36,815 nt of DNA from a virus. The number at the start of each line of letters is the position of its first letter. The first letter of the stretch is position 1. This document shows, piece after piece, positions 1-35,842 of the stretch. Below the pieces are notes generated by a model, which ran no database searches, was not told the origin of the DNA, and saw only the letters and a program-made list of their open reading frames with translations. A program made the position numbers and the translations under genes. The DNA lies in the IMG/VR virus record IMGVR_UViG_3300044998_000754; one strand, 5' to 3'.

Positions 1-127
1 GAGCTTCGGCGTGGTCCTGGGGGAGTCACACACGCCCTACACTTCGTCGCCGCCGGCTACGCCCCGGAGATGACCGGCATCGCCCGCAAGACGGACGGCA
101 CCATCCCAGGTCACCCTCTCCGGGCCG
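1..127. repeat. 127-bp terminal direct repeat, identical to 36689..36815 (circular-closure overlap)
   Basis: Base-by-base comparison of the two window ends: gagcttcggcgtggtcctgg...caccctctccgggccg is present at both. Confidence 0.95.
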
Positions 128-2865: not shown

Positions 2866-4308
2866 GTGGACTACCCAACGCAAGGTGACCGTGTCATTGA
2901 GTTCACCGAGACCTTCCTCACGTTGGGAGGCTCCTTCGTCGGCCAACCCTTCATCCCGCTCCCGTGGATGAAGGACACCCTCCGGGACATCTTCCGGCTC
3001 GATCCCGAGACCGGCCGCCGCCAGCACCGCACCTACCTGCTCGGTGTTCCCCGCAAGAACGCCAAGAGCACCCTGGGAGCGGCCATCGCCGTCTACATGC
3101 TCTGCATCGACAACGCCGACCCCAAGCCGGAGGTCTACTCCGCTGCCGGCGACCGGGCTCAGGCCAAGCTCGTGTTCGATGAGGCCAAGAGGATGATCCA
3201 GTCCTGTCCGGAACTGGACGACATCTGCACCGTCTACCGAGATGAGATTCGCTGTCACCGGACCGGTGGACGCTACAAGGCCGTGTCCGCCGACGCCGGC
3301 CTGGCTCACGGCCTGAACCCCTCGTGCGTCATCGTTGACGAGTTCCACGTTCACAAGACGGACGAGCTGTACGTCGCCCTCACGACCGGGTCCGCCACCC
3401 GCAACCAACCGCTCACCGTCGTCATCACAACGGCCGGCCATGACCTGGAGTCTCCGCTCGGCAAGCTCTACGAGTACGGCCGCCGGGTCGAGTCCGGCGA
3501 AGTTGACGATCCATCCTTCGGCTTCCGCTGGTACGGCCCTAGGGACGGAGAGGAGTTCGATCCGTCCGATCCCGAGACCTGGAAGCGGTACAACCCGTCC
3601 TGGGAGATCATGAACGAGGACGACTTCCGGTCCGCCTGGAAGTCTACCCACGAGAGCCAGTTCATCCGCTACCGCCTGAACGGCTGGACCGCCGCTGAGT
3701 CGGTGTGGCTCCCTCACGGTGCTTGGGAGGCCTGCCGATCAGACGACCGCCCGCTGGCTCCTGGCGATGAGGTCATCCTCGGCTTCGACGGTGCTTGGAA
3801 GGGTGACTCCACCGCCATCGTCGCCGTCCGGCTGGACGACTTCCACCTGAACCTCGTCGGTCTCTGGGAGGCTCCTCCCGACGATCCGCACTGGCGGACG
3901 CCGGCCGAGGACGTCAAGGAAGCGATCCGCCAGGCGTGTCGAACCTACCGAGTCCGGGAGATCGTCTGTGACCCGTTCCGGTTCGAGCAGTCGCTCCTAG
4001 ACCTCATGGACGAGGGCTTCCCGATCATCGAGTACCCGACCAACTCACTCGCCCGCATGGTCCCGGCGACGCAGTCCTTCTACGACGCCGTCATGGACCG
4101 GAAGCTCACTCACGACGGTCATCCAGCCCTAGCCCGTCACATCGGCCACGCCGTCCTCAAGGAGGATGCGAAGGGAGCCCGCATCACGAAGGCCAGCAGA
4201 GCGAGCAGCCGCCACATCGACGCCGCCGTAGCCGCTGTCATCGGCCACCATCGAGCCCGCCAGTTCCGGGAGACGGTCGTGAGTGAGCCCCAGCTCTTGG
4301 TCCTCTGA
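2866..4308 (+). CDS. terL: Terminase large subunit
   Basis: 480 aa. Walker A-like GVPRKNAKST and Walker B-like CVIVDEFH, with a nuclease-type C-terminal half. It sits upstream of the portal gene. Confidence 0.9.
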   Translation: MDYPTQGDRVIEFTETFLTLGGSFVGQPFIPLPWMKDTLRDIFRLDPETGRRQHRTYLLGVPRKNAKSTLGAAIAVYMLCIDNADPKPEVYSAAGDRAQAKLVFDEAKRMIQSCPELDDICTVYRDEIRCHRTGGRYKAVSADAGLAHGLNPSCVIVDEFHVHKTDELYVALTTGSATRNQPLTVVITTAGHDLESPLGKLYEYGRRVESGEVDDPSFGFRWYGPRDGEEFDPSDPETWKRYNPSWEIMNEDDFRSAWKSTHESQFIRYRLNGWTAAESVWLPHGAWEACRSDDRPLAPGDEVILGFDGAWKGDSTAIVAVRLDDFHLNLVGLWEAPPDDPHWRTPAEDVKEAIRQACRTYRVREIVCDPFRFEQSLLDLMDEGFPIIEYPTNSLARMVPATQSFYDAVMDRKLTHDGHPALARHIGHAVLKEDAKGARITKASRASSRHIDAAVAAVIGHHRARQFRETVVSEPQLLVL

Positions 4309-26085: not shown

Positions 26086-27890
26086 GAACGTTGACGGCCA
26101 CCGTGACCGGCGACGAGGTTCGCATCAGTGTGGTCGAGGACGTCCGGGACCTCGAAGTGTTGCTGTCCTGGGCGCTCCGGTTGGGAGCGGTCGCCCTCGA
26201 CGTCGAGACGACCGGACTGGACATCTTCGGACAGGACCGGCTCCGGCTCGTCCAGTTCGGGAACCGGTCCGAGAGCTTCGTCTTGGACGTCGAGCGGTTC
26301 CCCGCGCACCTCGACACCGTCGCCACGATCATCAAGGCGGTCCCCAGACTCGTTCTCCACAACGCAGCCTTCGACCTGCTGGCCCTCGACCGGGTTGGCG
26401 TCCTGGAACTTGACACGGTCTGGTCAAGAGTCATCGACACGAGGGTCCTCGCTCACCTCCTCGACCCTCGATCCGCCGCCGAGGGAGGCCCAGGTCACGG
26501 GCTCAAGGCATTAGCGGCCTATCACCTTGGCGACGACGCCGACCGGTACCAGGCGGAGCTTCATCAACGCTTCCGGACGCTCCGCCTCACCAGATCGTCC
26601 GGTTGGGCCGGGATCGAGACGACCGACGAGGCCTTCCTCCGCTACGCCGCCGTGGACACCGTCCTGACGGCCCGGCTCTACTACGCCCTCGGTCCGCTCG
26701 CCCGCCTCCAGCAGCTCGACCGGCTCGCCGCCTTCGAGTCACAGGTAGGCCTCGTCTGCGCCAAGATGCAGCGCACCGGACTCCTCCTCGACGTCCAGTA
26801 CGCCGAGGAGCTTCGGGCCTATTACGAGTCCGAGGAGACCGCCGGCCGTCAGGAGGCCGCATCCTTCGGGATCGAGAAGGTCAACTCGCCGGCCCAGGTC
26901 GCTGAGGTCCTCACGGCGCTCGGCGCTCCGTTGACCGAGCGGACGCCCTCGGGCGCTCCGAAGGTGGACCGGGCCGTCCTCACCGCCATCGCCAGCAGCC
27001 ACGGGCCGGCTGCTGCTCCGGCGGCCGCTGTGCTTCGGGCCAAGCAGGCCAACAAGTTCAGGACCTCGTATGTGGAGGTCACCCTCGCTCGGCGGGACTC
27101 GGCCGACCGGGTCCACCCGACGATCAACCCGCTCCAGGCCCGGACCGCTCGCATGTCGATCTCCGATCCGCCGCTCCAGCAGCTTCCGTCCGGCGACTGG
27201 AGGGTCCGCCGCATGTTCGTTCCGAGACCTGGGAGCCGGCTCATCTCGGTCGACTTCTCCCAGGTCGAGATGAGGGTCCTTGCCGCACTGTCCGGTGATG
27301 CCGCCATGACGGAAGCGATCGTGTCCGGCGAGGACTTGCACTCCACGGCCGCCAGGCTCATGTTCGGTCCGGACTTCACCGAGAAGGACCGGAAGCTCGC
27401 CAAGGTCGCGGGGTTTGCGAAGGTCTACGGCGGAGGAGCGGCTACCATCGCCCGCCAGACCGGCGTCACGACCGACGTCGCCAAGGCGGCCACCGAACGA
27501 TACGACCGGGCCTTCCCAGGCATCCGCCGGCTCGCCCGGCTCCTCCAGGAACGAGCCGAGTTCTCGGCCCTCGACGTCGAGACGCCAACCGGTCGGAGGC
27601 TGCCGCTGGACCGGGACCGGCTGTACGCAGCGGTCAACTACCTCGTCCAGTCCACCGCTCGGGACCTCCTGGCCTATGCCCTGGTCAAGATGGATGAGGC
27701 CGGGCTCTCGGATCATCTCCTGCTCCCCATCCATGACGAGGTCCTGGCCGAGGCCCCGGCCGACGAGGTCGAGGAGGTCGCCAAGGCCATCTCCGATGCG
27801 ATGACGATGGACTTCATGGGTATCCCGATCACGACCGACACCGAGGTCGCCCGAGGGTCGTGGGGAAGTCTCTACGGAGCGGACCGATGA
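26082..27890 (+). CDS. DNA polymerase I (family A) with a 3'-5' exonuclease domain
   Basis: Exonuclease motifs LDVETTGLD and HNAAFDL. Polymerase motif A DFSQVEMRVLA, motif B RKLAKVAGFAKVYGGG, motif C LPIHDEVL. Confidence 0.92.
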   Translation: MRTLTATVTGDEVRISVVEDVRDLEVLLSWALRLGAVALDVETTGLDIFGQDRLRLVQFGNRSESFVLDVERFPAHLDTVATIIKAVPRLVLHNAAFDLLALDRVGVLELDTVWSRVIDTRVLAHLLDPRSAAEGGPGHGLKALAAYHLGDDADRYQAELHQRFRTLRLTRSSGWAGIETTDEAFLRYAAVDTVLTARLYYALGPLARLQQLDRLAAFESQVGLVCAKMQRTGLLLDVQYAEELRAYYESEETAGRQEAASFGIEKVNSPAQVAEVLTALGAPLTERTPSGAPKVDRAVLTAIASSHGPAAAPAAAVLRAKQANKFRTSYVEVTLARRDSADRVHPTINPLQARTARMSISDPPLQQLPSGDWRVRRMFVPRPGSRLISVDFSQVEMRVLAALSGDAAMTEAIVSGEDLHSTAARLMFGPDFTEKDRKLAKVAGFAKVYGGGAATIARQTGVTTDVAKAATERYDRAFPGIRRLARLLQERAEFSALDVETPTGRRLPLDRDRLYAAVNYLVQSTARDLLAYALVKMDEAGLSDHLLLPIHDEVLAEAPADEVEEVAKAISDAMTMDFMGIPITTDTEVARGSWGSLYGADR

Positions 27891-28753
27891 GCCGGCCGAT
27901 CTACCGGGCCGAGGTCGAGGAGTGGCTTCCGGAAGGGTATGTCTATCTCTGGCACGGGCCGGTTCGGTACAAGACGCAGCGCCGGTCCGCTGTCGTAGCT
28001 CTGTGTCCGAACGGTCACACCTGGCGGTGTTGTCTCGACAACATCAAGAAGGGCCACCGTTGCGGAGAGTGTGCCGACCGGACCGCCACGGTCGACGAGG
28101 TCCAGTCCCTCATCCGTGAGATCGGGTACACCTACATCAAGCAGGAGGTCCGTGGCACCGGTAAGGCCCGAAAGACCTTCGTCTGGTCTCGATGCCCGAA
28201 CGGTCACACCTGGCGGTGTCGTCTCGACAACATCAAGAAGGGCCACCGTTGCGGAGAGTGCGCCCGCCAGCGCGGCCTCTCCAAGCTCCACTACTCCCTC
28301 TCGGACTTCCGGACCGGTTCCGCCGACCCCGCGAGACCGCTTCGGGTCTACATCTACCTCTGGGCCGGCGTCGTCAAGGTTGGCATCGGTCGCCCCGACG
28401 GATTCTGGGAGCGGCACGGAGCAACCCTCATCCACTCCATCACCGTCCCTGCCATCGTCGCTAGCGCCGTCGAGGAGATGCTCCTTCATCGACTACAGGG
28501 ACATCGCTACGGCCGGACCTCCAAGGTCACGTTCGGGTGCTCTGGTGCCGAGACGACCGAGTGGGCTCCGGCCGAGGCCTGGTTCTCCCAGGTCACGGAG
28601 GTCCATGCGATCCTCGACTGGGCCGAGCGCCCGGAGACCGCCGAGGCCTTCCTGGACAACATCCACAACCACACCATCGACCGGTTCTTCGGTCGCAAGC
28701 CCCCGACCGCTCCGGCGGACGTCGTCATCCCCACCAAGGAGAGGGCAGCATGA
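27887..28753 (+). CDS. Duplicated zinc-ribbon protein with a T5orf172/GIY-YIG-like C-terminal domain (possible homing-type nuclease or DNA-binding protein)
   Basis: Two copies of CPNGHTWRC-LDNIKKGHRCGECA, then ...LRVYIYLWAGVVKVGIG.... ATGA overlap with the polymerase stop. Confidence 0.5.
   Translation: MSRPIYRAEVEEWLPEGYVYLWHGPVRYKTQRRSAVVALCPNGHTWRCCLDNIKKGHRCGECADRTATVDEVQSLIREIGYTYIKQEVRGTGKARKTFVWSRCPNGHTWRCRLDNIKKGHRCGECARQRGLSKLHYSLSDFRTGSADPARPLRVYIYLWAGVVKVGIGRPDGFWERHGATLIHSITVPAIVASAVEEMLLHRLQGHRYGRTSKVTFGCSGAETTEWAPAEAWFSQVTEVHAILDWAERPETAEAFLDNIHNHTIDRFFGRKPPTAPADVVIPTKERAA
28004..28264 (+). repeat. Two 72-bp near-identical direct repeats (28004..28075 and 28193..28264) inside CDS 27887..28753
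   Basis: 69/72 identical, and all three differences are T/C transitions. The flanking coding sequence is not conserved between the two copies. Confidence 0.9.
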
Positions 28754-29058
28754 GCGCCGAACGCATCCTCACCCTGATCGAACACACCCGCAAGGACCTC
28801 GACCTCCTGGAGGCCAACGTCCGACGGGCAGCCTCCGTCCAGTGGGAGCGCCCAACATCCCGACGGACTTCGGCATCGGACATCAAGGCCCGAGGAGGTC
28901 ACCGGGACCCGACCGGCGACACCGCCGTGGACCCTGTGCGGCTCTCCGTCCGACGCTCGATCGTCCGGACCGACACTGAGATGGTCAAGGTCGCCCGCAC
29001 CGTCCGAGGGCTCGCCGGTCTGGTCGGGCATGCCGTCGGAACCTGGGAGAAGGGTTGA
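28750..29058 (+). CDS. Hypothetical protein (102 aa)
   Basis: ATGA overlap with the upstream stop. MSAERILTLIEHTRKDLDLLEANVRR.... I have no confident family assignment. Confidence 0.55.
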   Translation: MSAERILTLIEHTRKDLDLLEANVRRAASVQWERPTSRRTSASDIKARGGHRDPTGDTAVDPVRLSVRRSIVRTDTEMVKVARTVRGLAGLVGHAVGTWEKG

Positions 29059-29061
29059 CCG

Positions 29062-29081
29062 GTCCGAGAACCTTCACGGAC
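29062..29081. promoter_or_regulatory. Operator-like palindrome, copy E (GTCCGAGAACCTTCACGGAC)
   Basis: Matches 16/16 fixed positions. Starts 4 nt after stop 29058, upstream of the small basic ORF and the sigma factor gene. Confidence 0.65.
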
Positions 29082-29115
29082 CGGTCAAAGACACCGTCTC
29101 CGGTGCCGATAGGGA

Positions 29116-29121
29116 TAGCAT
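29116..29121 (+). promoter_or_regulatory. -10-like box TAGCAT, 6 nt upstream of ATG 29128 (leaderless geometry)
   Basis: TAnnnT hexamer. No RBS lies between the box and the ATG. Confidence 0.4.
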
Positions 29122-29127
29122 GACACC

Positions 29128-29304
29128 ATGTCGAAGAAGCAGCTCCCAAGAGACATCACCAAGGCCGCCCGAGACCAGGAGCGGCACTCCCGCCTCGCCG
29201 CTCTGGCCGACGGCCGGCGCACCAGGTCGGTCCGCTTCCGCCCGAAGCGCGGTCCAGGCTCCTACCGCCGGCGTCCGAAGCACCGTGGTCGGGATCATGT
29301 GTGA
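29128..29304 (+). CDS. Very basic 58-aa protein with an ArfA-like KxGxGSYxRxxKH motif
   Basis: Hand translation: MSKKQLPRDITKAARDQERHSRLAALADGRRTRSVRFRPKRGPGSYRRRPKHRGRDHV. Below the ORF-track cut-off. GC3-rich frame. Confidence 0.5.
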   Translation: MSKKQLPRDITKAARDQERHSRLAALADGRRTRSVRFRPKRGPGSYRRRPKHRGRDHV

Positions 29305-29338
29305 CAGACCGGTGCTAACATCTCGGCCGGATAGCGGA

Positions 29339-29362
29339 CCGGGGACGCTGCAACGTCCCCGG
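29339..29362 (+). terminator. Strong hairpin (CCGGGGACG-ctgcaa-CGTCCCCGG) between the small basic ORF and the sigma gene
   Basis: Perfect 9-bp GC-rich stem. There is no U-tract, so it may be an attenuator or a processing site. Confidence 0.45.
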
Positions 29363-29424
29363 CCCGACGGTCCAGGCACATCTCTCTCAAGCCCTTCCAC
29401 GAGCAATGAAAGCAGGTAGCCCCT

Positions 29425-30138
29425 ATGACCATCGACAACGATAGCCCTGATGCGTTCTCTCCTCAAGGTCAGTACCTTCCTCACGACGTTCTTCATCGTG
29501 AGGTCCGTGTTATCGCCCAGGCCGCTCTCCGCCGCCGGCCCCGGTCCGTCGGTCGAGCCCTGACGCTGAACGACCTCATCTCCGAAGGTTGGATCGCCGC
29601 CGACGAGGCTATGTCCAGGTTCGACCCGGAGAAGGGGGAGGCACTTCACTACGTCCGAGCCAAGGTCCGCCGCCGGCTCAACGACGTCCTCCGGCGTGAA
29701 GGACACACCGCCTCGGTCAGCGCCAGGACCCTGCACCGAGCGGCCGCCGGGGAGCTGAGCGAGGAGTCTCAAGCCCTGGTCGAAGCCTCGTCACCGACCC
29801 GTCGGGTCTCGATCGTTCCCGGCAACCCGGAAGGGCCGGTCGCTCCTGGCTCGATGCCCCAGGAGTGGCTCCCCTCTAGGGACGAGCCGACCATGGAGGA
29901 GATCGTCGCAGCCACCGAGGTCCGCTCGATCGTCCATCACCACCTCGACGTGCTGGCCGAGACCAGGCCCCAGCAGGCGGAGGCCGTCCGTCTCTCCTTC
30001 GGGATCGACGGTCCTGCCCTCTCTCGGCCCGAGATTGCGGACAAGCTCGGCACGACTGTGGAGAACGTGAAGAAGCTCCGCCAGCGTGGACTCGCTGCTC
30101 TCCGGGAGCAGGTTGCAGTCATCGCCCTCTGGGAGTGA
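29425..30138 (+). CDS. Phage-encoded sigma-70 family RNA polymerase sigma factor
   Basis: 237 aa. Region 2-like DLISEGWIAADEAMSRFDPEKGEALHYVRAKVRRRLND. Region 4-like AVRLSFGIDGPALSRPEIADKLGTTVENVKKLRQRGLAALR. Confidence 0.75.
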   Translation: MTIDNDSPDAFSPQGQYLPHDVLHREVRVIAQAALRRRPRSVGRALTLNDLISEGWIAADEAMSRFDPEKGEALHYVRAKVRRRLNDVLRREGHTASVSARTLHRAAAGELSEESQALVEASSPTRRVSIVPGNPEGPVAPGSMPQEWLPSRDEPTMEEIVAATEVRSIVHHHLDVLAETRPQQAEAVRLSFGIDGPALSRPEIADKLGTTVENVKKLRQRGLAALREQVAVIALWE

Positions 30139-31594
30139 ACACCGCCCGGTCCGGGTCGAACGTCCCTCGCCGGGACCCGGACGGTAGGACCGTCACCCGT
30201 TCCATGACCGCCCGGATCAAGGCCGGAGCGTGCTCCGAACGAAGGAGCAGGTCTCCCGGTTCATCGTCGTCCGCCGCCATGACCGGGTCGAGGACCGTGC
30301 TCAGATCAACCGGAGCGGGCTCCAGCCCTTCTAGCTCCTGGCGGAGTCCGCCGAGCCGTTCCTGGAGCCGAGAGACCTGCCGAGCGTACCGGTCTCCGGC
30401 GATGAGACCGTCCGCACGGTCGTCGTCCAGGTTCTCCAAGGCCTTCGTCACGACCTCGATCTCCGAGCGGATCGCTCGTCTCCTACCCTCGTCCTCCACG
30501 GCCTCGTCGTCGGCCACGATCCGAGCGATGGCGGCCAGGGCCTCGGGCTCGGCGTCTGGGTCGATGGCGGCTAGCTGGGCCGAGGTCCAGGATGCAACGA
30601 GCCGGTCGAGTGAAGGCATGGAGACCGAGATGTCGCATCCGATCCGGGAGCACCGGTACCGGCCTCGTCCGGAGTCCTTCGATCGGTCGCCATAGAGACG
30701 GGAGCCGCAGAGCCCGCAGTAGGCCACTCCTCGGAGCAGTGAGGGCTCACCTCGTCCGGCCCGACCTCTCCATGTCCGAAGGCGCTCTTGGAGCCGGAGG
30801 AAGGTGGTCTCGTCCAGCACCGCCTCATGGACCTGGACCGGTAGACCGTCCTCACTCACCACGACCCGCCGGGCATCCCGAGGGCCACCGTCAGGAACCC
30901 ACCCGGCCAGGTAGACCGACCGCAAGGTCCTGGTCAAGGACGTGATGGTCCACTCAGCTCCGTTCCGGCCGCGGTGTCCGTTGTCGTTCAGCCATCGGAC
31001 CTGCGAAGCAACCGAGGCTCCGCCGATGATGGTCTCAGCCACGGCCCGCACGATCGGTCCCTCCTTCTCGTCCACGACCAGACGTCCGGCCTCCAACCGA
31101 CATCCGAAGGGGACTCGCCCGCCCTGGAACCGGGGATCGTTCCTTCGGATCGAGGCCTTGGCCTCCTTCACCTTCTCCGACCGTAGGTCAGACTCCTGCT
31201 TGGCGAACGCTGCGAACAGAGAGAACACGGCTTGAGCGATCGGGGAGTCGGTGCTCAAGAACGGCTCCCCGACGGAGACGAGCTTCACGCCGGCCTCCTC
31301 CAGGGTCTCCACGATCTCCAGGGCTTCCCTGATCCCGCGCCGGGACAGTCGGCTGAGGTCTCGGACCACGACCCGGTCGACCCGTCCGGCTCGGACGTCT
31401 GCCAGCACCGCATCAAGTCCAGGCCGCTGGACCGAGACATCCCACCCGGACACTCCGATGTCCTCGTGGAAGCGAACGAGGTCCCAGCCCTGGGACTGGC
31501 AGAACGCTTCGATGCTGGCCCGTTGGCTCTCTGGGCTGGCCTCGGAGTCCTTCCGTCTGGACTGACGAACGTACCCTACCGCTCTCGGTCTCAC
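30119..31594 (-). CDS. int: Large serine recombinase (serine integrase)
   Basis: AVGYVRQS (catalytic Ser), RPGLDAVLADVRAGRVDRVVVRDLSRLSRR, a recombinase domain, the Zn ribbon CGLCGSRLY...YRCSRIGC, and a coiled-coil tail. GTG 31594 puts the Ser at residue 12; the maximal ORF extends to a TTG at 31669. Confidence 0.88.
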   Translation of the reverse strand: MRPRAVGYVRQSRRKDSEASPESQRASIEAFCQSQGWDLVRFHEDIGVSGWDVSVQRPGLDAVLADVRAGRVDRVVVRDLSRLSRRGIREALEIVETLEEAGVKLVSVGEPFLSTDSPIAQAVFSLFAAFAKQESDLRSEKVKEAKASIRRNDPRFQGGRVPFGCRLEAGRLVVDEKEGPIVRAVAETIIGGASVASQVRWLNDNGHRGRNGAEWTITSLTRTLRSVYLAGWVPDGGPRDARRVVVSEDGLPVQVHEAVLDETTFLRLQERLRTWRGRAGRGEPSLLRGVAYCGLCGSRLYGDRSKDSGRGRYRCSRIGCDISVSMPSLDRLVASWTSAQLAAIDPDAEPEALAAIARIVADDEAVEDEGRRRAIRSEIEVVTKALENLDDDRADGLIAGDRYARQVSRLQERLGGLRQELEGLEPAPVDLSTVLDPVMAADDDEPGDLLLRSEHAPALIRAVMERVTVLPSGSRRGTFDPDRAVFTPRGR

Positions 31595-31610
31595 CCCTCC
31601 GATCCTAGCC

Positions 31611-31652
31611 GGGGAGACGTCGCCACTGCCCAGGCAAGGGCAACGTCTCCCC
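31611..31652. repeat. 42-bp element with perfect 10-bp inverted arms (GGGGAGACGT ... ACGTCTCCCC), followed by the tandem octamer CCCCGTGT x2 (31649..31664)
   Basis: Read directly from the sequence. Lies immediately upstream of the probable int start. Candidate attP core or int leader structure. Confidence 0.5.
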
Positions 31653-31687
31653 GTGTCCCCGTGTGGCAATATAGACAGTGAGACCTA

Positions 31688-33307: not shown

Positions 33308-35842
33308 ATGCCGACCGTCACGACCGAAGTCTCACTCCTCACGGGCACCGACGACGCCACCTACGACAACAGCTCCTACACCGACAGCGCTAACACACAT
33401 TGGATCGGCGTCCGCCGCTCCAGCGGCGTCACGGTCGGGAACTGGGGAGGCTTCCGGTTCCGCATCCCGACGTCGGTGGACCCTTCCCGCATCACCTCGG
33501 TCAAGCTCTCCCTCTACAACATCACGGCCGGTAACACCGTTGAGGCCGTCATCCGGGTCGAGCAGTCCGCCGCCGCCGCTTGGTCATCGTCCGGCTCCAA
33601 CCGCCCGGACAACCGCTACAACGCCGTCGGCTCGTCCGGGGAGGTAGCGTGGAACTACACCTCATCGGTGGGCCGGGTCGAGTCGCCGGACATCTCGGCC
33701 CGCGTCATCTCGGCCCTGGCGAACATCGACCAGGGCTCGGACTACCTCGGCATCCTCATCGGTCCGTCCGCCGCCACGGTCTCACGACGAACGCAGTATT
33801 CGTCTCAGGACACGAGCACGGCCGCCAACCGACCGCTGCTCATCATCACGGAGGACGTCCCCGCCGAGGACGCCGAGGTCACGACGGTCGCTCCATCGGT
33901 CGCTGCCCAGACGCCCGACGACGTCGAGACGGGAGCCTGGACCGAGCACCTGGACGTCTCCTACCACGACGGGATCGGCTCCAGCACACGCCGCTCCTGC
34001 AACGTCTACGTCCCCTACGGGACGCCCCCGAGCGGGGGCTGGCCGGTCATCCTGTTCGTCCACGGAGGCTCCTGGATCGGCGGGAGCCGAAACTCCATCA
34101 CCTCCAAGCTCATCACCAGGTCGATCTCGGCCGGCTGGGCCATCATCTCGATCAGTTACAAGCTGTCGGACTGGAACGTCCTGCTCAACACGAACACCGG
34201 AGCCAACCGCCCGTCTCACACCCAGGACGTCCTCTGCGCTACCAAGTGGATCGCCGCGTCGGCCGCTGACACCTACGGGCTGAACCCGGACAAGCTCGTC
34301 GGGATGGCCTACTCGGCCGGCGCTCATCTGCTGCTGGAGGCCGCCCTCCTCATCGAGGACCCGGACCGCGACACCTACGTCATGGCCTACAACGGCGCTT
34401 CCGGAACGGAACGCCGTACCACCTACAACGCCTCGACGGTCCTGAACTTCACACAAGGTCGGACCGGCTTCCCATCGTTCCGAGGTCTGTTCCTCTGGGC
34501 CGGCCCGGTCCGGTTGTCGGAGCTGTACGGCATCCCGCTCGTTCAGTCGGCCGCCCGCGGCTACATCGGACAGCTCCCGAACAACTCCCTCTCCAACACG
34601 GCCACGGCCGGCGAGGGCAACCTGAACGACTTCATCACGGCCGCCTCGGGCAGCATCTACGACACCCGCTCCGAACGTGTCCCGCCGTTCCCGATCGCGT
34701 ACTGCGAGGACACCACGGACCTGATCGTCCCGCCCGACGCCGGACTCACCCCGCTACGCGCCGCCCTCGACGCTGTCGGCTACGACGTGTCCGCTGGCAA
34801 CGGAGTCGTCAACCCTGACGGCCTGTCCTACCGCAGCTACGCCGGCTCGGGCCACGACTGGCTCCTCGCCCAGAACGATTGGACCTTCTGGCGGAACTGG
34901 CTTGACGCCGTTCCACTCGGTGGCGAGGACGACACGGTCACGACCACGGCACCCTCGGCCGCCGCCAGCACCGGCTCCCCGACGGTCACCATCTCGGCCG
35001 AGGTCACGACCACGGCCCCCTCAGCCGCCGCCAGCACCGGCTCCCCGACGGTCGAGACCGGCTTCGGTGACGACGTCGATGTCACCGCTCCGATCGCCCA
35101 GGCCTGGACCGGCGACCCAACGGTCTCCATCTCCGCCGAGGTCACCACCACGGCACCCTCGGTCACCGCCGGCACCGGCGACCCAACGGTTGACGCCGGC
35201 TCCGGCGACACGGTCACCACCACGGCACCCTCGGTCACGGTCATCACCGCTGAGCCCTCCGTCTCCACGGCCACCGCCGGAGAGGCCGACCCAGCGGCCG
35301 CCGCCCTGGTCCTCGGGACCGGCGAGGCTACCGTCGTCGTCGTGGACGCCGAGGTCCTGACCGCTGCTCCGACGTTCTCCGTCACCGCCGGAGAGGCCTC
35401 CACCGCCGGCTCCACCGAGGTCACCGCCACGGCACCCTCGGTCGCCCTTGACCTCCCGGCTCCGTCGGTCTCCACGGCCGCCGCCGGAGAGGCTGACCCC
35501 GCTGCGGCCGGCTTCATCCTCGGCACCGGCACACCGACAGTCTCGGTCTCCTCCTCCGATGCGGTCACCGTGGCCGCTCCTGGGTTCGTGGCCGGCGTCG
35601 GCCTGGCGGACGCCTCGTCCGGAGCCTCGGTCGCCACCGCAGCACCGGCGCTCGTCGTCTCGGCCGACGCTCCGACAGTCGTGACCGACGCCGCCGTCTC
35701 CACCACGGCCCCGACGGTCACCGTCACAGCGCCGGCCCCGAGCACCGGCACCGGTCTCGTCCTGGTCACGGCCGCCAGACTCCTCCCTCCGTCCTGGAGC
35801 GCCGTTCTCGTCCCGACCTCACTCGCCCGCCTGAGGAGATGA
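33308..35842 (+). CDS. Large multidomain protein: DNRLRE-like beta-sandwich N-terminus, alpha/beta-hydrolase (esterase) domain, and an Ala/Thr/Ser/Val/Pro-rich repeat tail
   Basis: 844 aa. HGGSW oxyanion-type motif at 34061..34075. Nucleophile-elbow-like GMAYSAGA, with the Ser codon at 34313..34315. GSGHDW lies near the end of the domain. The C-terminal 300 aa are built from VTTTAPS-type repeats. Confidence 0.7.
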   Translation: MPTVTTEVSLLTGTDDATYDNSSYTDSANTHWIGVRRSSGVTVGNWGGFRFRIPTSVDPSRITSVKLSLYNITAGNTVEAVIRVEQSAAAAWSSSGSNRPDNRYNAVGSSGEVAWNYTSSVGRVESPDISARVISALANIDQGSDYLGILIGPSAATVSRRTQYSSQDTSTAANRPLLIITEDVPAEDAEVTTVAPSVAAQTPDDVETGAWTEHLDVSYHDGIGSSTRRSCNVYVPYGTPPSGGWPVILFVHGGSWIGGSRNSITSKLITRSISAGWAIISISYKLSDWNVLLNTNTGANRPSHTQDVLCATKWIAASAADTYGLNPDKLVGMAYSAGAHLLLEAALLIEDPDRDTYVMAYNGASGTERRTTYNASTVLNFTQGRTGFPSFRGLFLWAGPVRLSELYGIPLVQSAARGYIGQLPNNSLSNTATAGEGNLNDFITAASGSIYDTRSERVPPFPIAYCEDTTDLIVPPDAGLTPLRAALDAVGYDVSAGNGVVNPDGLSYRSYAGSGHDWLLAQNDWTFWRNWLDAVPLGGEDDTVTTTAPSAAASTGSPTVTISAEVTTTAPSAAASTGSPTVETGFGDDVDVTAPIAQAWTGDPTVSISAEVTTTAPSVTAGTGDPTVDAGSGDTVTTTAPSVTVITAEPSVSTATAGEADPAAAALVLGTGEATVVVVDAEVLTAAPTFSVTAGEASTAGSTEVTATAPSVALDLPAPSVSTAAAGEADPAAAGFILGTGTPTVSVSSSDAVTVAAPGFVAGVGLADASSGASVATAAPALVVSADAPTVVTDAAVSTTAPTVTVTAPAPSTGTGLVLVTAARLLPPSWSAVLVPTSLARLRR
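34937..35560 (+). repeat. Nested coding tandem/dispersed repeats (66-bp unit at 34937 and 35003; degenerate copies at 35141, 35213 and 35420; about 207-bp-period pair at 35261 and 35468)
   Basis: Direct reading: gtcacgaccacggcaccctcggccgccgccagcaccggctccccgacggtc is repeated 66 bp later with 2 changes. Confidence 0.8.

Follow-up and report, generated by a model that had tools for sequence, protein, structure and literature searches.

A clade of small, actinophage-associated basic proteins with an ArfA-type channel-sensing tail and a separate N-terminal module

We analyzed an open reading frame (ORF) of 58 codons at positions 29128-29304 of a viral DNA of 36,815 nucleotides (IMG/VR record IMGVR_UViG_3300044998_000754; this whole stretch is called the window below). 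An initial annotation, made from the sequence, had proposed that the product resembles the ribosome-rescue factor ArfA. We found that the protein belongs to a chimeric, actinophage-associated clade in which the channel-sensing tail of ArfA is joined to a different N-terminal module. This clade is what is new here, as ArfA encoded by phages was already known. Comparisons of sequence profiles indicate that the protein does resemble the ArfA tail and that chance does not account for this, with significance reached at the level of the family only. By N-terminal, regulatory and threshold criteria, the window protein is not a member of the ArfA family. We give roughly even chances to the view that the phage makes it as a small and very basic protein of two modules that binds ribosomes and acts in rescue.

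The proposed likeness was based on a sequence of the Escherichia coli ArfA tail (...KKGKGSYMRKGKH...), which proved to be correct: the E. coli ArfA sequence (YhdL; Pfam PF03889; PDB 5H5U, 5MDV, 5MGP and 5U4I) was confirmed at 72 of 72 positions with PDB 5H5U chain 3. Comparing KRGPGSYRRRPKH of the window protein with KKGKGSYMRKGKH, we counted directly 8 identical residues of 13, with equal spacing and no gap. When the window ORF alone was searched against Pfam, ArfA was the sole match (residues 36-52, 12.8 bits, E = 0.081). Relatives of the protein gave stronger matches. ArfA was the best Pfam family for 15 of 15 relatives tested (best E = 1e-6), nine relatives had precomputed PF03889 matches, and three carried the Joint Genome Institute (JGI) product name 'stalled ribosome alternative rescue factor ArfA'. 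A profile of the clade, compared with 177,635 PDB sequences, had ArfA chains as all of its best six matches (E = 0.0017-0.0068). A significant ArfA-family match, which the initial annotation had made a check of its proposal, was obtained with the clade profile and with some relatives, and not with the window protein itself.

We compared the clade profile with an alignment of canonical ArfA (E. coli ArfA together with 21 ArfAs from enterobacteria and 8 from phages). This comparison covered 47 ungapped columns (window 12-58, ArfA 5-51) with an hhalign probability of 96.9% (P = 1.9e-10); for the tail only (window 39-54, ArfA 32-47), the probability was 97-98% (P = 1.7e-11 to 1.4e-13). The tail score of 42.8 compares with 8.4 ± 2.6 (maximum 21.2) for column shuffles that preserve composition (z = 13), and none of 300 shuffles reached it. 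The consensus of the clade tail, PKKGKGSYRRKxKH, is set against PKKGKGSYRRKKKH in diverse canonical ArfAs, and the aligned pairs (window/ArfA) are G42/G35, G44/G37, S45/S38, Y46/Y39, R48/R41, K51/K44 and H52/H45. The four non-basic residues among them (G42, G44, S45 and Y46) are 99-100% invariant in the clade and identical to those of ArfA.

Residues 31-48 of ArfA fill the mRNA tunnel, and ArfA is active when truncated at N47 and dead if cut after M40 (PMC5378476). Because the window protein covers the equivalents of ArfA 31-51, its tail is a complete minimal tail. All members of the clade end 7-16 residues past the invariant tyrosine. Judged by these alignments, we regard the C-terminal 16-20 residues as a bona fide ArfA-type tail.

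The initial annotation had itself offered an alternative, that the protein is a generic nucleic-acid-binding basic peptide. Such a peptide might condense DNA or RNA or have a regulatory role; its likeness to ArfA would be compositional or convergent, and it would have nothing to do with the ribosome. The product is indeed strongly basic (pI 12.0; 20 of 58 residues are lysine or arginine), its single-sequence Pfam match is not significant, and the genes around it function in replication and transcription (PolA, a sigma factor). Against this, the tail match survives the composition-preserving shuffles, the invariant positions include residues that are not basic, and 14 consecutive consensus positions follow the order and spacing of ArfA. 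Across some 70 divergent relatives, six positions do not vary. Beyond close relatives, moreover, family members lie in unrelated phage-like neighborhoods (many ORFans, WhiB, L5 gp82-like genes and genes of tape-measure size encoding about 2,000 residues), so that adjacency to a sigma factor carries no general functional meaning. We consider a generic basic peptide improbable.

Several lines of evidence indicate that the ORF is a real gene, conserved and under selection. The ORF was not called in the JGI annotation of the source contig, a metagenome contig of 36.9 kb to which the window is equal; it is present as described in the initial annotation, with a translation that agrees exactly, and the pattern G.GSY.R occurs once in a six-frame translation of the window. 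An orthologue with 69% identity (P0001) was called as a gene in a related phage and is syntenic: the order at that locus is primase/helicase, PolA, a 233-residue protein, the DUF7169 protein, the small ORF, a sigma factor and a serine recombinase. The body of the ORF can be aligned between the two DNAs and the flanking intergenic DNA cannot. The ratio of nonsynonymous to synonymous substitution rates (dN/dS) was 0.27-0.68 against six relatives (below 1 in 6 of 6 pairs, with dS saturated), and the GC contents at codon positions 1, 2 and 3 (0.69, 0.58 and 0.80) resemble those of the adjacent genes. A chance ORF within GC-rich intergenic DNA would agree with the missing JGI call, with the failure of simple scans to find promoter or Shine-Dalgarno motifs, and with the presence of an overlapping antisense ORF of 232 codons. 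It does not agree with 86 homologous clusters that have six invariant residues, with the called and syntenic orthologue whose alignment stops at the ends of the ORF, or with dN/dS below 1 and a GC content higher at the third codon position than at the second. We find a non-gene reading scarcely credible, and the conservation data effectively refute it already.

Other searches around the ORF gave little. NCBIfam had no match to the product, and Rfam had none to positions 28000-30500 on either strand. A PDB search with the single sequence returned only an S27ae zinc-ribbon protein (E = 0.28), which we judged to be spurious. By eye, a -10-like TAGCAT lies in 29110-29127, ending 6 nt 5' of the ATG, and no Shine-Dalgarno sequence accompanies it. 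This arrangement would fit a leaderless mRNA; such mRNAs are common in actinobacteria.

A word-indexed homologue search with the ORF product as the sole query found nothing, and an exhaustive HMMER search over 1.84 billion representatives later succeeded. It identified 14 small homologues of 42-84 residues that aligned across nearly the whole query; two further proteins, P0002 (2,398 residues) and P0008 (371 residues), were repetitive and unrelated and were dropped. A profile built from the homologues extended the set to 86 clusters. In an alignment of 68 sequences, G29, R33, G42, G44, Y46 and R48 are invariant. Members of the clade, which we call DGRRxR-ArfA-tail proteins as a working name, have 42-84 residues and a helix ending in (V/L)xAL(R/A)(D/E)G, with G29, R33 and F37, followed by [KR]GxGSYxR, and the window protein has all of these features. 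From this signature we derived a DNA pattern that recovered 11 of 11 family loci; of its matches in JGI metagenomes, 5 of 5 were true members. The pattern had no matches in IMG/VR, and tblastn did not detect the clade in 50,697 isolated phage genomes. The GC content of the loci that carry the family is 49-73%.

The N-terminal 38 residues form a separate, conserved module that consists of a long charged helix, as predicted, and DGRRxR(A/S)xxF (Table 1). An AlphaFold2 (AF2) model made with the 68-sequence alignment has one long helix followed by an extended tail that contains K51-H52 (mean predicted local distance difference test score, pLDDT, 79). Foldseek found nothing in the PDB for this model (best E = 9.8), as expected for a helix plus coil. 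In addition to the tail, the initial annotation had seen a common 'MS-basic-basic-Q' start. This did not hold, as E. coli ArfA begins with MSRYQ and the N-termini of the relatives are not conserved. The idea of an ArfA-like homologue stands for the tail, by the family-level profile match, and fails for the N-terminus, which has no detectable likeness to the part of ArfA that recruits release factor 2 (RF2).

The same N-terminal module also occurs with another tail. In 17 of the 86 relatives (P0193, P0195-P0199 and P0201-P0211; for example L033:5001-5183 and L034:5001-5186), the module (...ALRDGRRQRAATF; hhalign 98.8%, P = 6e-17) is followed by the basic sequence TDRKKxANRKACRGR with an invariant A-C-R. 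These proteins had no significant match in Pfam or the PDB (a RemA-like match had E = 0.64), and they are encoded on phage-like contigs full of ORFans. Because the module is joined to alternative basic tails, it is an independent functional unit. One further relative, P0200, has a tail in which KGKGS is deleted (RSAKDYRRKPKH).

Table 1. Features of the window at and around the 58-codon ORF
Feature	Coordinates	Strand	Details
58-residue ORF	29128..29304	+	ATG start, TGA at 29302-29304
Charged alpha-helix, residues 5-27	29140..29208	+	Predicted (AF2, pLDDT ~87-94); ends in conserved (V/L)xAL(R/A)D
Linker D28-R38, DGRRTRSVRFR	29209..29241	+	Clade consensus DGRRQRAxTFx; G29 and R33 invariant, F37 near-invariant
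ArfA-type tail P39-G54, PKRGPGSYRRRPKHRG	29242..29289	+	Equivalent to E. coli ArfA N32-N47; KGKGS-type loop (RGPGS here) and KH motif
DUF7169 protein gene, upstream neighbor	28747..29058	+	Pfam E = 8e-16; syntenic in L005 (related phage) and Arthrobacter phage Soondubu
Upstream hairpin, 12-bp stem, over DUF7169 stop codon	29055..29089	+	dG -23.6 kcal/mol, z = -3.8, shuffles as stable 0/200; no U-tract
Downstream GC-rich hairpin	29330..29372 (extended); 29339-29362 (core)	+	dG -25.7 kcal/mol, z = -3.8, shuffles as stable 0/200; no T-run
Phage sigma-70-family factor gene, downstream neighbor	29425..30138	+	Sigma70_r2 E = 9.6e-8, Sigma70_r4 E = 3.3e-5

We propose the following mechanism for a role in rescue. 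As in ArfA, the tail would pass into the 30S subunit's mRNA entry channel only if this is empty, as happens when a ribosome stalls at the 3' terminus of a cleaved or truncated mRNA. With the tail anchored, DGRRxR(A/S)xxF would lie at the A site or decoding center, and the charged helix would extend into the inter-subunit space; this placement of the linker is based on ArfA H21-E30, which are located in the A site (PMC5378476). The N-terminal module would then recruit or activate a class-I release factor, leading to hydrolysis of the peptidyl-tRNA and to the ribosome's release. On comparison with known factors, we take recruitment or activation of a release factor to be the most likely outcome, at about even odds: ArfA, BrfA and ArfT all recruit release factors despite N-termini that are unrelated to each other (PMC8012679).

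Expression would also differ from that of host factors. The stop codon of the ORF lies just past a tail of tunnel length, and the protein is therefore made directly at the 'truncated, active' length. It would escape the non-stop control, coupled to transfer-messenger RNA (tmRNA), that limits ArfA and BrfA of the host. A plausible benefit is that recycling of ribosomes would continue when mRNAs are cut during infection by RNase-type defenses of the host or by phage-induced decay of host mRNA. The likely hosts are without ArfA and RqcH, a background that would fit rescue supplied by a phage. More tentatively, and with less confidence than the rescue role itself, the N-terminal module might be a previously unrecognized unit that originated in phages, engages the ribosomal A site or a release factor, and is combined with interchangeable channel-sensing tails (ArfA-type or TDRKKxANRKACRGR). 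It would define a modular family of constitutively expressed viral rescue factors or antagonists in Actinobacteria that are without ArfA and RqcH, plausibly acting against RNase-based abortive infection.

Several points weigh against a role in rescue. The 12.8 bits of the window protein are below the Pfam gathering threshold for ArfA (25.5 bits), and the central lysine of KGKGS is a proline in the window protein, as it is in 15% of the clade. A tail so short and basic could conceivably have arisen by convergence, as is held to be the case for the KH motif of BrfA (PMC8012679). The N-terminal part of ArfA, in which A18, P23 and F25 take part in binding and activating RF2, adds a beta-strand (Q27-E30) to RF2, makes contact through F25 and folds into a hydrophobic, activating minidomain (PMC8012679, PMC5378476). 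The clade has R30 at the position of ArfA P23 and Q or T (T32 in the window) at the position of F25, the RF2-specificity contact. An hhalign comparison of the N-terminal parts of the clade and of ArfA gave a probability of 0.2%, with 44 of 200 shuffles scoring equally, and 10 of 11 canonical ArfA N-termini scored no better than shuffles with a hidden Markov model (HMM) of the clade module. Because the N-terminal part has no detectable likeness to the RF2-binding region of ArfA, release-factor recruitment is pure inference. Simple scans of 28700-29700 found no sigma-70 promoter, Shine-Dalgarno sequence or intrinsic terminator.

The same comparisons bear on the idea that the protein is a very divergent true orthologue of ArfA, N-terminus included, which would recruit RF2 by addition of a beta-strand before the tail. 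The ungapped 47-column hhalign places the hydrophobic V/L23, A25 and L26 and the invariant R33 on ArfA I16, A18, L19 and R26. One canonical-type sequence, P0194, is a weak exception to the shuffle results, with 6.7 bits against the N-module HMM and none of 300 shuffles equal to it, and three members of the clade have been named ArfA by JGI. A register found by eye, with A25-L26 on ArfA A18-L19 and R33 on R26, had no statistical support from hhalign or the HMM shuffles, and we retain it as a weak rival only. The N-terminal part alone cannot be distinguished statistically from shuffles, and each family has conserved residues without a counterpart in the other (G29 and F37 in the clade, P23 and F25 in ArfA). 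AF2 predicts a helix of 23 residues in place of the small, looped-back minidomain of ArfA (PMC8012679). Non-stop regulation is absent, and the gathering threshold was missed. We regard orthologous descent over the full length as improbable.

Alternatively, the protein could be an antagonist. Its tail would plug the vacant channel with no release factor recruited and would block tmRNA-SmpB or ArfB, for example to prevent SsrA-tagging of phage proteins, or it would occupy free 30S or 70S particles and modulate initiation or host translation. Consistent with this, the likeness to ArfA is confined to the tail, the clade has not kept the RF2-contact residues F25 and P23, and ArfA can bind ribosomes even without RF2 (PMC5378476). 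The N-terminal module is also joined to a second basic tail, which leaves its role independent of the chemistry of ArfA, and the separate stop codon allows expression without tmRNA feedback. However, all characterized small proteins with a channel-sensing tail (ArfA, BrfA and ArfT) recruit release factors (PMC8012679), and other phages encode canonical, presumably functional ArfAs, one of which is expressed in infection, which suggests that rescue benefits phages. Blocked rescue would, moreover, sequester ribosomes that the phage needs. We think that an antagonist is unlikely, although it is the main rival of a role in rescue.

The window is a complete-looking genome of a temperate siphovirus type with 67% GC. 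Its genes include those for a class II ribonucleotide reductase, the large terminase subunit (TerL), portal, HK97-type capsid, endolysin, primase/helicase, PolA, the DUF7169 protein, the sigma factor and a serine integrase. An actinobacterial host is likely, because the isolates most closely related to it are Arthrobacter and Microbacterium phages (47-50% amino acid identity in PolA and primase/helicase); the actinobacterial context suggested in the initial annotation agrees with this. Megablast of positions 27000-31000 against phages and tblastn with the sigma factor gave no match. The position of the small gene just upstream of a phage sigma factor gene was borne out by the domain matches in Table 1, and the strong hairpin noted downstream of it is likewise real.

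The core of the downstream hairpin begins 34 nt past the TGA, outside the ORF, and this hairpin is probably a terminator without a U-tract. The upstream hairpin probably serves in termination or in processing and forms one boundary of the cassette. These two inverted repeats (29055-29088 and 29335-29366) are the only ones in 28900-29500, one on each side of the ORF. In Arthrobacter phage Soondubu, the same junction between DUF7169 and sigma-like genes has a gap of 159 nt and no small ORF; the gap in the window is 366 nt. Because the Soondubu junction is without the ORF and both inverted repeats flank it, the small ORF looks like an inserted, self-contained cassette that is bracketed by hairpins between conserved phage genes. 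The octamer CGGACCGG is present in both flanking hairpins (29076-29084 and 29335-29343), and in the related phage L005 two hairpins 3' of the orthologue have the loop CUGGCAUC in common. Such common motifs may have arisen by chance, the DNA being GC-rich, or may be what is left of cassette boundaries.

Some other features of the window were observed. The genes for the sigma factor (29425-30138, + strand) and the serine integrase (30119-31669, - strand) are convergent, and the 3' ends of their ORFs overlap by about 20 nt; the integrase called by JGI has 491 residues and is N-terminally shorter than the ORF of 516 codons. Upstream of the DUF7169 gene, 27860-28753 (+ strand) encodes a 297-residue protein in which a motif of about 50 residues (CPNGHTWRC.LDNIKKGHRCGECA) occurs twice in tandem. 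Its only matches were weak ones to treble-clef zinc fingers (DUF4379, E = 0.006), and its slot is filled in L005 by the different protein of 233 residues. The gene for the B12-dependent class II ribonucleotide reductase (653 residues; 886-2847, + strand) lies between the small terminase gene (Terminase_4, upstream on the permuted contig) and TerL (2866-4308), which is an unusual position for a metabolic gene. Between an HNH endonuclease region and the terminase genes, 33308-35842 (+ strand) encodes an 844-residue protein with a central BD-FAE/alpha-beta-hydrolase (esterase) domain at residues 232-365.

ArfA, BrfA and ArfT have each been regarded as a narrow, lineage-specific invention. In the clade described here, the channel-sensing tail of ArfA has moved onto a different N-terminal module, and viruses bring the ArfA-tail chimera into bacteria that have no genomic ArfA. 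These bacteria, the actinobacteria, include the mycobacteria, in which trans-translation is a drug target. If the protein acts in rescue, it would be a compact and naturally 'pre-truncated' factor with which to study stop-codon-free activation of release factors in actinobacteria, and a candidate phage countermeasure to defenses that cut mRNA. As a blocker of rescue, it would instead be the first antagonist of that process from a virus. Either outcome can be tested with a synthetic peptide of 58 residues. More small proteins of the release-factor-dependent type (ArfA, BrfA and ArfT) have been predicted to exist and are hard to find by sequence (PMC8012679).

Compared with ArfA, the window protein has a similarly small size (active ArfA has about 55 residues), a near-identical tail consensus and a tail length that matches the mRNA tunnel. 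It differs in its N-terminal 38 residues, which are unrelated to ArfA by every test, and in the absence of the RF2-contact residues F25 and P23. It also has the predicted 23-residue helix in place of the looped-back minidomain (PMC8012679), and it is phage-encoded in an actinobacterial-type context. In arfA and brfA, a hairpin or terminator inside the ORF yields a non-stop mRNA and control by tmRNA (PMC8012679). The window gene has its own stop codon and a hairpin outside the ORF, and its product is without the hydrophobic C-terminal extension. Because an in-frame TGA ends the ORF 34 nt before the hairpin, non-stop regulation coupled to tmRNA does not apply.

BrfA (Bacillus subtilis YqkK; PDB 6SZS) is an RF2-dependent rescue factor of a Gram-positive bacterium, with its tail in the mRNA channel (PMC8012679). 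It resembles the window protein in architecture only, with an N-terminal helix and an extended basic tail that contains KH, and the AF2 layout of the window protein is nearer to the published description of BrfA than to ArfA. In contrast to the window gene, brfA has its terminator within the ORF and is translated from a non-stop mRNA. BrfA is without the KGKGSY motif, and no BrfA chain was among the PDB matches of the clade profile at E ≤ 10. ArfT of Francisella tularensis (about 40 residues) is likewise tiny and basic, has no non-stop regulation and has a C-terminal segment rich in lysine and glycine (KKGGSTNKK). It indicates that such tails can go with N-termini able to recruit RF1 in addition to RF2 (PMC8327144). 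ArfT has a different tail motif and no detectable sequence relationship to the window protein.

Canonical ArfAs encoded by phages are short, have the same tail and soon afterwards a stop codon of their own, as the window protein does. Unlike the window clade, they retain the ArfA N-terminus (N-h-h-x-A-h-L-x-x-P-x-F-R-x-R). ArfA is annotated in GenBank for Pseudoalteromonas phage J2-1 and Citromicrobium phage RXM (g10) (PMC8953757), a 42-residue protein of Erythrobacter phage XM05 has 36.9 bits to Pfam ArfA (profile positions 10-44), above the threshold, and gp30 of pelagiphage HTVC027P has an ArfA domain, its transcription being high at early and late stages of infection (PMC12753301). An ArfA borne by a phage is thus not the novelty that the initial annotation took it to be. 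Canonical ArfAs are also encoded by Roseobacter phage CRP-212, Salmonella phage Arash and Pseudomonas phages pf16 and Y3. The support for these phage proteins is annotation (PMC8953757) or transcript level (PMC12753301), and the searchable literature contains no biochemical test. ArfA of J2-1 (L018:283-438) keeps the ArfA N-terminus (...LFRTRVE...) and has no KGKGS loop (RDKTKYRRKKKH), so the loop is dispensable or replaceable in some phage versions. Some of these genes are labeled otherwise. The homologue in Arash (gp99c, L024:217-441) is called 'ribosomal protein L2', that in Y3 (L021) is mis-annotated or unannotated, and only an ORF on the opposite strand is annotated over the ArfA-like frames of pf16 (L020, ~301-435) and Ralstonia phage RsoM2USA (L022, ~301-453).

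Proteins of 48 residues from Enterococcus phages (EF1 ASZ76726; PHROG 37108, 'unknown function') are also tiny and phage-borne and have an ArfA tail that is close to perfect (KPKKGKGSYKRKPKHKGK). The EF1 protein (L001:1420-1566) and those of six related Enterococcus phages have 23.5 bits, just below the Pfam ArfA cutoff. Their N-terminus is like neither that of ArfA nor that of the window clade, and they come from phages of low-GC Firmicutes. They represent a third combination of an N-terminus with the ArfA tail. Among bacterial genomes, arfA was detected in 1 of 3,213 Actinobacteriota and in none of 2,376 Alphaproteobacteria, and rqcH was detected in no Actinobacteriota (PMC11633108). ArfA-domain genes are present in phages of Alphaproteobacteria (XM05, L002; RXM, L019; CRP-212, L023; and HTVC027P (PMC12753301)). 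Outside the Gamma- and Betaproteobacteria, ArfA-type factors may reside mainly in phages.

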